64,000 nucleotides of DNA from Escherichia phage 212, in the sequence record PQ765507, one strand, 5' to 3'. A program made the position numbers and the translations under genes. This document shows, one piece after another, positions 20,414-21,286 of this stretch. Each line of letters opens with the position of its first letter. Within the stretch, counting starts at the first letter, position 1. The notes beneath the pieces are model-generated. The model had not been told where the DNA came from and made no database searches. It worked only from the letters and a program-made list of their open reading frames with translations.

Positions 20414-20731
20414 ATGAAAACCATTGATTGCAAGGCAGAATACAAAGTTTATTATCATGGGTCAAGCTCTAATGCTGGAATCCAAAATATGCTTTGTCCT
20501 CCTGATGCAACTGGTGTTTTGTCAGAAGTTGGGCGTAAGAAAAATTTAGGGCGTGTGTTTTTTACTGAAGATATTGGTTTGGCGCGTATCTATGCAGGAA
20601 GAGCAGCTCGCTCATATGGAGGAGAACCCCGTCTTTATCGTGTGATTGCACCTGTTGACGTGGTTTGTTTAAATGACACTAAAGGCGCAACAGTTTATCA
20701 CGCCGCCTGGGCGTTTTGTGAGGAAATCTAA
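20414..20731 (+). CDS. small protein with H-G-S and FFTEDIGLARIYA motifs (possible minimal ADP-ribosyltransferase-like fold)
   Basis: FFTEDIGLARIYA resembles SFTEDYGIARDFA / SFSKDFSVARNFA of the Mod-like proteins at 27226 and 27831. Confidence 0.45.
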   Translation: MKTIDCKAEYKVYYHGSSSNAGIQNMLCPPDATGVLSEVGRKKNLGRVFFTEDIGLARIYAGRAARSYGGEPRLYRVIAPVDVVCLNDTKGATVYHAAWAFCEEI

Positions 20732-20944
20732 ATGTATAAATTAGAGAACGTAGTGTTTATTGGTTGGTTTGAAAATGGTAATATGTTTACCAAAGAAACC
20801 GCGCTGGATGTCAGTGACAAAAATATGATTGAATGGGTTACAGTGCAGTATGCAGAAGTGAATAATGCGCTGGTTAAAGCCTTTGTTAATGACAATAAAG
20901 TTTTTGAATGTGATTATCGTATCCACTTATCTGAGGAAATCTAA
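20732..20944 (+). CDS. dmd: Dmd antitoxin (inhibitor of RnlA/LsoA-type toxins)
   Basis: 70 aa; recalled match to T4 Dmd (gene 61.5): VVFIGWFENGNMFTKE..., VQYAEVNNALVKAF. Confidence 0.75.
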   Translation: MYKLENVVFIGWFENGNMFTKETALDVSDKNMIEWVTVQYAEVNNALVKAFVNDNKVFECDYRIHLSEEI

Positions 20945-21286
20945 ATGGCTTTTAATCCAGAAGACCGCGTAAAAGTAACAATCAAAGTGAGTGCTGTTGG
21001 TGTACCATCTTTTGAACGTTCTAGCATGTTCCATCCCGCAGGTATTCACTGGTATGCCCAAAAGACTGCTGATAACTATAATGCGCTGGTTGAAGCTTTT
21101 GTTGATGACAAGCTAATTCATAAAGTAGACATGCGTAAGGGTACTGCATTGCGTAATCTGATTTTGACCGTTGAAGCGCAACTGTTAAATGAAGAAATCT
21201 GCCTTACTGATATTGAAGCGGCTCTTCATATTGCACGTGCTGAATATTACAACTTGACTGGTTTTTCAGTTGAAGGTGAAAAATAA
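20945..21286 (+). CDS. Dmd-like paralog with N- and C-terminal extensions
   Basis: Segment HWYAQKTADNYNALVEAFVDDKLIHKVDMR parallels Dmd VQYAEVNNALVKAFVNDNKVFECDYR. Confidence 0.5.
   Translation: MAFNPEDRVKVTIKVSAVGVPSFERSSMFHPAGIHWYAQKTADNYNALVEAFVDDKLIHKVDMRKGTALRNLILTVEAQLLNEEICLTDIEAALHIARAEYYNLTGFSVEGEK

Follow-up and report, generated by a model that had tools for sequence, protein, structure and literature searches.

A minimal Arr-like ADP-ribosyltransferase-fold protein, Dmd and a putative second Dmd-type protein encoded head to tail in the gene 41-61 region of Escherichia phage 212

T4-type phages carry, between the helicase gene 41 and the primase gene 61, a stretch of small genes in which three inhibitors of toxin-antitoxin (TA) defence, namely Dmd, TifA, and AdfA, have already been experimentally proven. 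Dmd is a direct inhibitor of the HEPN RNase toxins RnlA and LsoA. The order of the genes in T4 is 41, dmd, 61.4 (tifA), sp, 61.2 (adfA), 61.1, and 61. Srikant et al. reported that dmd and tifA of T4 form an early operon, and the gene 41-61 stretch has been proposed as an "anti-TA island" whose remaining genes are "attractive anti-toxin candidates" (PMC9391042). With AcrIF11, there is already an example of a small phage ADP-ribosyltransferase (ART) that acts as an anti-defence enzyme (PMC12421852). Here, we describe the equivalent locus of Escherichia phage 212 (sequence record PQ765507), contained in a stretch of 64,000 nucleotides that is referred to as the window. In this phage, dmd is preceded by a gene for a 105-aa protein with an ART fold and followed by a gene for a 113-aa protein, which comprises a diverged Dmd-like domain and a separate C-terminal module.

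The region belongs to a VR20-like Gaprivervirus, i.e., a T4-type coliphage, and the 1.7 kb around the locus are 98.4% identical to vB_EcoM_VR20. It is flanked by gene 41 (18186-19625) and gene 61 (23044-24072). The three open reading frames (ORFs) listed in an initial annotation, which was made from the sequence alone, are present at 20414-20731 (105 aa), 20732-20944 (70 aa), and 20945-21286 (113 aa), and the motifs quoted there, YYHGSSS, FFTEDIGLARIYA, and HWYAQKTADNYNALVEAFVDDK, are all found in the translations. All three ORFs are annotated as genes in the near-identical phages VR20 and EAWsc9. The coding features of the locus are as follows.

20414..20731, + strand: minimal ART-fold protein encoded as a stand-alone ORF, Arr-like and of the His-type branch, PHROG 2110 (structure model, Foldseek, and profiles)
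20732..20944, + strand: dmd, encoding the 70-aa Dmd antitoxin (Pfam and identity to T4)
20945..21139, + strand: diverged Dmd-like N-domain, residues 1-65 of the 113-aa protein (profile and BLASTP similarity to Dmd)
21140..21286, + strand: C-terminal module, residues 66-113 of the 113-aa protein, ending in SVEGEK, predicted to be helical and mobile (homologues in other coliphages)

We propose, with rather more confidence than doubt, that three translationally coupled genes in region 20352-21286 make up one early transcription unit within the gene 41-61 anti-TA island, and that this unit specifies an active Arr-like ART, Dmd, and a second Dmd-type binder. The 105-aa ART would most likely bind NAD+ and mono-ADP-ribosylate a host macromolecule soon after infection, serving counter-defence or takeover. 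The 70-aa Dmd would bind and block the RnlA/LsoA RNase toxins, while the 113-aa protein would most likely bind, in stoichiometric fashion as well, a host toxin outside the range of the ordinary Dmd, its C-terminal module providing oligomerisation or a second contact.

The assignment of ORF 20732-20944 to Dmd in the initial annotation is borne out by the Pfam Dmd family PF17587, which is matched with 73.3 bits (gathering cut-off of 27) and an E value of 2e-20 over model positions 3-59 of 60, and by 57% identity to T4 Dmd (E 2e-22). Judged by these matches, the ORF is a bona fide Dmd and of an already known kind. A comparison with the VR7 orthologue yields a ratio of nonsynonymous to synonymous substitution rates (dN/dS) of 0.125.

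The 105-aa protein was modelled with AlphaFold2 (AF2) using 41 homologues, and the model reached a predicted local distance difference test (pLDDT) score of 88 and a predicted template modelling (pTM) score of 0.80. Its top match in Foldseek is Arr, with a probability of 1.0 and a template modelling (TM) score of 0.60, so that the ART fold suggested for this ORF in the initial annotation holds. The family profile, run against 1.84 billion representative proteins, retrieves 245 relatives, and in many of them the copies of the ~95-residue domain pass the threshold of Pfam Arr-ms PF12120 (27-35 bits; cut-off of 25). Among the close homologues, Arr-ms is matched by 4 of 41, with a best E value of 0.084. 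Neither phmmer nor the family profile of the 105-aa ORF found a match in the PDB, and linking the family to Arr by sequence required a wider profile that includes the distant relatives; this profile aligns to Arr-3 in hhalign at 93.5% (E 2e-7), and its best sequence match in the PDB is Arr-ms 2HW2, at a marginal E value of 0.086. In the 2HW2 alignment, which stops at Arr residue 82, H19 of Arr corresponds to H15, Y49 to F49, and E40-x-G-R43 to E38-x-G-R41. His instead of Arg is a hallmark of the H-Y-type ART branch, which includes Arr, Tpt1, diphtheria toxin, and PARP; the His of the Y-H-G-S motif is a signature of the His-type branch and not a mutated Arg. Database labels for the family are mostly "hypothetical" or "uncharacterized" and occasionally "ADP-ribosyl transferase" or "rifampin ADP-ribosyl transferase", and a literature search on the 105-aa family or an Arr-like phage ART found no relevant paper.

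The residues expected to line the NAD pocket are strongly conserved. Across 148 sequences, there is no or almost no variation at H15, G16, E38, R41, F49, T51, Y60, G69, and G70. The His-Gly-Ser/Thr motif (H15-G16-S/T17) occurs in 142 of 142 relatives, 143 of 146 have the second aromatic residue, Y60, and the basic loop E38-x-G-R-K-K-N is invariant. The initial annotation had regarded the ORF as possibly inactivated, which is at odds with an NAD-pocket set (H15-G16-S/T17, F49, T51, and Y60) that is invariant across ~150 distant relatives. Since these residues are conserved, an active enzyme is favoured, and it is from this conservation that we infer enzymatic activity.

Several observations weigh against an active Arr-like enzyme that cooperates with Dmd. 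At the canonical Tyr position (F49), 138 of 148 sequences have Phe and 9 have Tyr. No conserved catalytic Asp or Glu is found, and positions 86-88, which are equivalent to D84 of Arr, are variable; E103 was considered as the catalytic Glu and rejected, being conserved only in the T4-like subgroup, with Glu in 15 of 49 aligned relatives. The 105-aa ORF itself reaches none of the Pfam ART models and gives no match to Arr-ms at E values up to 10. In Slopekvirus, Lazarusvirus, and Ishigurovirus, the ART gene is located elsewhere, among small early ORFs. Mono-transferases that lack the acidic residue are known among the His-type ARTs, as exemplified by PARP-family variants.

The ART gene occurs in 609 phage records of the Straboviridae, in 592 of which the identity is at least 60%, and the hosts of these phages include Escherichia, Klebsiella, Acinetobacter, Aeromonas, Vibrio, and other genera. 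Across 120 protein clusters, identities range from 53 to 99%. T4 lacks the gene. It is located directly 5' of dmd in Mosigvirus, Dhakavirus, and Gaprivervirus; because this adjacency is confined to the Tevenvirinae, a functional link between the ART and Dmd is not implied. Outside the T4-like phages, the domain is found inside proteins of up to 3924 aa, with a lambda-type portal together with a 2H phosphoesterase, NUDIX, GNAT, CHAP, ART-PolyVal, and LPD23 as partner domains. Giant polyvalent proteins of 1955-3924 aa contain this mini-ART, sometimes beside ART-PolyVal or NUDIX, and one further arrangement is a portal-ART-2H fusion. "Polyvalent proteins" are injected together with DNA by phages and conjugative elements (PMC5512222). 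The occurrence of the ART domain in such injected proteins thus supports an early, host-directed role.

The relationship of the 113-aa protein, the putative Dmd paralog, to Dmd was evident from several comparisons of sequence. A hidden Markov model (HMM) built from 23 Dmd sequences scores the ORF at 24.5 bits, compared with 11.7 bits for the best of 20,000 shuffles and 5.5 bits for the runner-up among the 672 six-frame ORFs in the window. The match to the PHROG Dmd family has an E value of 3.5e-6, the hhalign comparison of the paralog profile with the 23-sequence Dmd profile gives a probability of 90.9% (E 1.1e-6), and the best PDB sequence match is T4 Dmd, so that the profile similarity is significant. 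BLASTP against the neighbouring Dmd finds 31% identity over 58 residues (E 1e-6). Alignments with MAFFT and BLASTP span the whole length of Dmd, with F-E, M-F, W, D, and R positions in common and a nine-residue loop deletion in the paralog. Residues 1-65 are, on the strength of these alignments, a real though diverged Dmd homologue, with a fold that is unconfirmed by prediction. The core that the initial annotation had called Dmd-like therefore stands, while the extension appended to it in the same description is a separate mobile module and not an elaboration of Dmd.

Other results speak against this relationship or limit its extent. Its Pfam Dmd score of 19.5 bits falls short of the cut-off of 27, the match having an E value of 1.3e-3 and covering model positions 29-59 only. 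The confident part of the hhalign alignment comprises the helix and the last strand (34 columns), and the VR7 orthologue is without the similarity to Dmd that the paralog has in the N-terminal hairpin. The AF2 prediction, made from the alignment of the paralog with Dmd, is all-helical with a pLDDT of 44 and is unusable, so that it gives no support for the fold. A homologue search with the paralog among 5.8 billion proteins recovered one cluster only; the family being this small, a deep paralog alignment is out of reach. No relevant literature on a Dmd paralog was found.

The C-terminal module consists of residues 66-113 (48 aa; LRNLILTVEAQL...YYNLTGFSVEGEK) and is present in 84 phage records, in which it adopts three architectures. 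In the Dhakavirus ESCO10, a separate ORF of 50 aa at the equivalent place encodes the module by itself; it forms the C-terminus of 120-174-aa proteins with unrelated N-termini in ~69 Phapecoctavirus genomes; and it is fused to a Dmd-like domain in only 14 phage records. The profile of the module gave nothing but a chance antibody match when compared with PDB and Pfam. In ESCO10 (1349-1641, 3' of dmd), a 46-aa zinc-ribbon-like ORF with a CxxC...CxxC pattern (PHROG 13952) precedes the 50-aa module, and the product names given in this record to Dmd ("zinc ribbon") and to the module ("modifier of suppressor tRNAs") appear to be wrong.

Phages of the VR20, VR7, and VR25 types carry the gene for the 113-aa protein, and it is lacking in SP18 and related phages, in which dmd is followed directly by sp; the gene is thus accessory. 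Compared with its VR7 orthologue (62% identity), dN/dS is ~0.14, with synonymous sites saturated. This value, which is close to that of dmd, indicates a working gene kept under purifying selection. For the N-domain alone, the proportions of nonsynonymous (pN) and synonymous (pS) differences are 0.31 and 0.76, respectively, the latter being saturated and the ratio not computable.

The origin and activity of the 105-aa protein could be explained in other ways. The initial annotation had called the ORF Mod-related, and it might accordingly be a degenerate, inactive remnant of an Arg-Ser-Glu ART of the Mod/Alt type whose catalytic Arg was lost. The likeness to the Mod-like ORFs at 27226-27786 and 27798-28445 (the previously quoted position 27831 is an internal ATG) is real, extending over the beta2-helix stretch (GRVFFTEDIGLARIYA vs GRITSFTEDYGIARDFA), but it is only marginal, with BLASTP E values of 0.002 and 0.005; the lack of a conserved catalytic acid would also agree with a remnant. 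However, sequence profiles link the family to Arr and not to Alt/Mod, and profile and fold evidence groups the protein with Arr, Tpt1, AcrIF11, and diphtheria toxin. In place of the R-S-E features, the protein has His15 for Arg and Phe-Phe-Thr for Ser-x-Thr/Ser, and it contains no Glu-x-Glu. It does not match PHROG 832 ("RNA polymerase ADP-ribosylase"), unlike both Mod-like ORFs. Moreover, a His-Gly-Ser/Thr motif kept in every relative and a presence in 609 phage records, with hosts as distant as Vibrio and Acinetobacter, are unlike remnants, and we consider such a descent very unlikely. There is a slim chance that the protein is a Tpt1/KptA-like RNA 2'-phosphotransferase or an RNA-end ADP-ribosylating enzyme, which would repair or mask toxin-cut RNA and thereby complement Dmd. 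The invariant basic loop could bind phosphate, the ART gene adjoins dmd in the Tevenvirinae, and the domain is joined with a 2H phosphoesterase in one relative and with NUDIX in a second, both being enzymes that act on ADP-ribose derivatives (PMC9503650). Against this, the sequence-level link leads to Arr and not to Tpt1, the ORF has no match to the Pfam Tpt1 family, and the position of the basic loop appears, from the sequence, to be that of the NAD-binding donor loop of PARP-type enzymes. In Tpt1, the N-terminal RNA-binding lobe carries an Arg-His-Arg-Arg tetrad; this lobe is missing from the phage protein, of which ~75 NAD-lobe residues align to the 179-aa chain. That the protein is a true rifampin ADP-ribosyltransferase, acting on a rifamycin-like small molecule, is scarcely credible, even though Arr is both the closest solved structure (Foldseek) and the closest family (profile) and its name is used in a few GenBank records. 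The C-terminal third of Arr is missing, relatives match Pfam positions 1-67 of 99 only, D84 is not conserved, and the phage 212 protein is under every Pfam threshold; the domain in injected polyvalent proteins likewise points to macromolecular host targets. The evidence from sequence and structure weighs most strongly against the Arr and Mod versions.

In the case of the 113-aa protein, the Dmd-like stretch may be a borrowed or converted segment (the NALVEAFVDDK helix-strand), and the function would then reside in the mobile C-terminal module and not in toxin inhibition. This possibility, which we regard as unlikely but of some weight, agrees with the 34 confidently aligned columns, with the score under the Pfam threshold, with an uninformative structure prediction, and with the occurrence of the module alone at the same position in ESCO10 and on unrelated N-termini in Phapecoctavirus. 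The alignments, however, cover the whole length of Dmd with the F-E, M-F, W, D, and R positions in common, and the N-domain is kept in the VR7 orthologue, where pN is far below the saturated pS. The similarity does not stem from a recent gene conversion because it is found at the protein level only (31% identity). A more elaborate explanation would combine all three proteins into a layered anti-toxin module, in which the ART covalently disables a TA toxin or immune effector, the two Dmd-type proteins block different HEPN RNases of the RnlA/LsoA family, and the C-terminal module is a reusable adaptor for oligomerisation or targeting that is put on different inhibitor domains. T4 Alt ADP-ribosylates MazF, which would be a precedent for an ART directed against a TA toxin. 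We judge this combination to be improbable in its entirety and prefer the less specific proposal of one early unit with an active Arr-like ART, Dmd, and a second Dmd-type binder, in which we infer the targets and the antitoxin function.

The preferred proposal of a single early unit is based on the following elements around and between the genes.

20352-20372, + strand: G+C-rich, terminator-like stem-loop with a 9-bp stem and a T-run (sequence scan)
20359-20387, + strand: sigma-70-type promoter-like site, CTTACA-17-TATAAT with an extended TG (10/12 match), overlapping the stem-loop
20720..20734, + strand: junction repeat copy 1, GAGGAAATCTAAATG, containing a Shine-Dalgarno sequence, the ART stop codon, and the dmd start codon
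20933..20947, + strand: junction repeat copy 2, GAGGAAATCTAAATG, containing the dmd stop codon and the start codon of the 113-aa gene
21288..21316, + strand: promoter-like site before spackle (sp, 21345-21638), the downstream limit of the three-gene unit (sequence scan)

The site at 20359-20387 is the best promoter-like site of the region and, by analogy to T4 early promoters, is likely the early promoter of the three genes. Within the unit, the genes follow one another on the same strand, the stop codon of one adjoining the start codon of the next (TAA-ATG). Since a stem-loop and a promoter-like site are located upstream, the junctions are of this type, and the next promoter-like site appears only before sp, the ART gene, dmd, and the 113-aa gene probably form one early transcription unit. 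The ORF list contains nothing significant on the opposite strand of the locus, and an Rfam scan of 19500-21800 found no RNA family.

The junctions share an exact 15-nt direct repeat, GAGGAAATCTAAATG (17/18 nt when extended), which brackets the 213-bp dmd ORF exactly. These are the only two exact copies in the window, and the chance expectation is 0.25 at two or fewer mismatches. The repeat encodes the ...EEI tails of the ART and Dmd together with the Shine-Dalgarno sequence, stop, and start of the next gene. Microhomologies of such a kind drove the amplification of dmd-tifA in T4 evolution experiments (PMC9391042). Because dmd is bracketed by a repeat of this type, it looks like a ready cassette for duplication or loss.

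The full order of the region is 41, goF-like, 100-aa, 105-aa ART, dmd, 113-aa, spackle, 146-aa, 117-aa, TifA homologue, 63-aa, 61.1, and 61. The TifA homologue, a 73-aa ORF at 22437-22658, is 39% identical (E 1e-13) to the ToxN inhibitor gp61.4 of T4, belongs to Pfam DUF7279, and is displaced here from the dmd-adjacent position that it has in T4. Downstream of gene 41, an 82-aa ORF (19715-19963) matches the PHROG family "goF mRNA metabolism modulator" (E 3.6e-20); it has its own stem-loop (19624-19642) and a promoter-like site upstream, and it is annotated in SP18 and not in the VR20 record. The 100-aa ORF (20043-20345; PHROG 17014) between the goF-like and ART genes is variably present; in EAWsc9, which is without it, gene 41 is followed directly by the ART gene. 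The adjacent ORFs at 21640-22080 (146 aa) and 22082-22435 (117 aa) have a common C-terminal tail, SVDDQIFNAFMKR[D/G], and the match of the 117-aa ORF to Pfam AdfA (anti-DarT factor A, T4 61.2) is limited to its last 16 residues (model positions 196-211 of 211). It appears that the island genes exchange C-terminal tails, the AdfA-type tail being comparable in this respect to the SVEGEK module of the 113-aa protein. Further downstream, the Mod-like ORFs at 27226-27786 and 27798-28445 are tandem genes of the ModA/ModB type that match PHROG 832 with E values of 5e-28 and 2.5e-42, and neither reaches a Pfam ART model. The window thus encodes at least three ART-fold proteins of two clades, i.e., two of the Mod type and the 105-aa protein.

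Nothing at the locus is outside known kinds: the ART belongs to a known superfamily, in which it is an unstudied member with an unusual minimal form, and the Dmd fusion is rare. The locus adds two candidate counter-defence genes of known kinds to a known anti-TA region. A Dmd-derived fusion in the slot of TifA would show how antitoxins diversify through duplication and module fusion. The ART domain, uncharacterised, 95-105 aa in length, and extremely conserved, is carried by ~600 Straboviridae genomes and by giant injected polyvalent proteins, and its target, once found, would reveal a widely used reaction of phage takeover or counter-defence.

Among the known ARTs, Arr (PF12120; PDB 2HW2 and 9IAF) is the closest in both structure and family. 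Arr and the 105-aa protein are both small and share the His-Gly-Thr motif, the E-x-G-R loop, an aromatic-x-Thr/Ser strand, and the Ala-rich helix that comes after it. In contrast to Arr (140-150 aa), the phage protein is ~40 residues shorter for want of the C-terminal third; it has Phe in place of Tyr49, no conserved equivalent of Asp84, and an invariant G-R-K-K-N loop of its own, and the domain is found in phage polyvalent proteins and not in resistance cassettes. With the anti-CRISPR ART AcrIF11, neither a sequence relationship nor a CRISPR link was seen. T4 Alt, ModA, and ModB have the superfamily fold in common with the 105-aa protein and are likewise enzymes of a T4-type phage, which modify host proteins early; they are twice its size, show a weak local similarity in the beta2-helix stretch, and belong to a clade with Arg, Ser-Thr-Ser, and Glu-x-Glu, whereas the 105-aa protein has His, Phe/Tyr, and no conserved acid.

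Of the antitoxins, T4 Dmd (gene 61.5; chain B of the LsoA complex, PDB 5HY3) is the orthologue of the 70-aa ORF and occupies the same post-gene-41 position in an early operon; the version of phage 212 differs from it by a longer loop and the EEI tail. The N-domain of the 113-aa protein has W, A, N-A-L-V-x-A-F-V-x-D, and D-x-R positions in common with T4 Dmd, and its gene adjoins dmd. It differs from Dmd in its identity of ~31%, a score below the Pfam threshold, the 9-residue loop deletion, and the extra 48-aa C-terminal module, which is never found on Dmd itself. The paralog has no sequence similarity to T4 TifA, the ToxN inhibitor encoded by gene 61.4; nevertheless, the 113-aa gene fills the same slot directly 3' of dmd and is predicted to share its transcript, as does tifA in T4.

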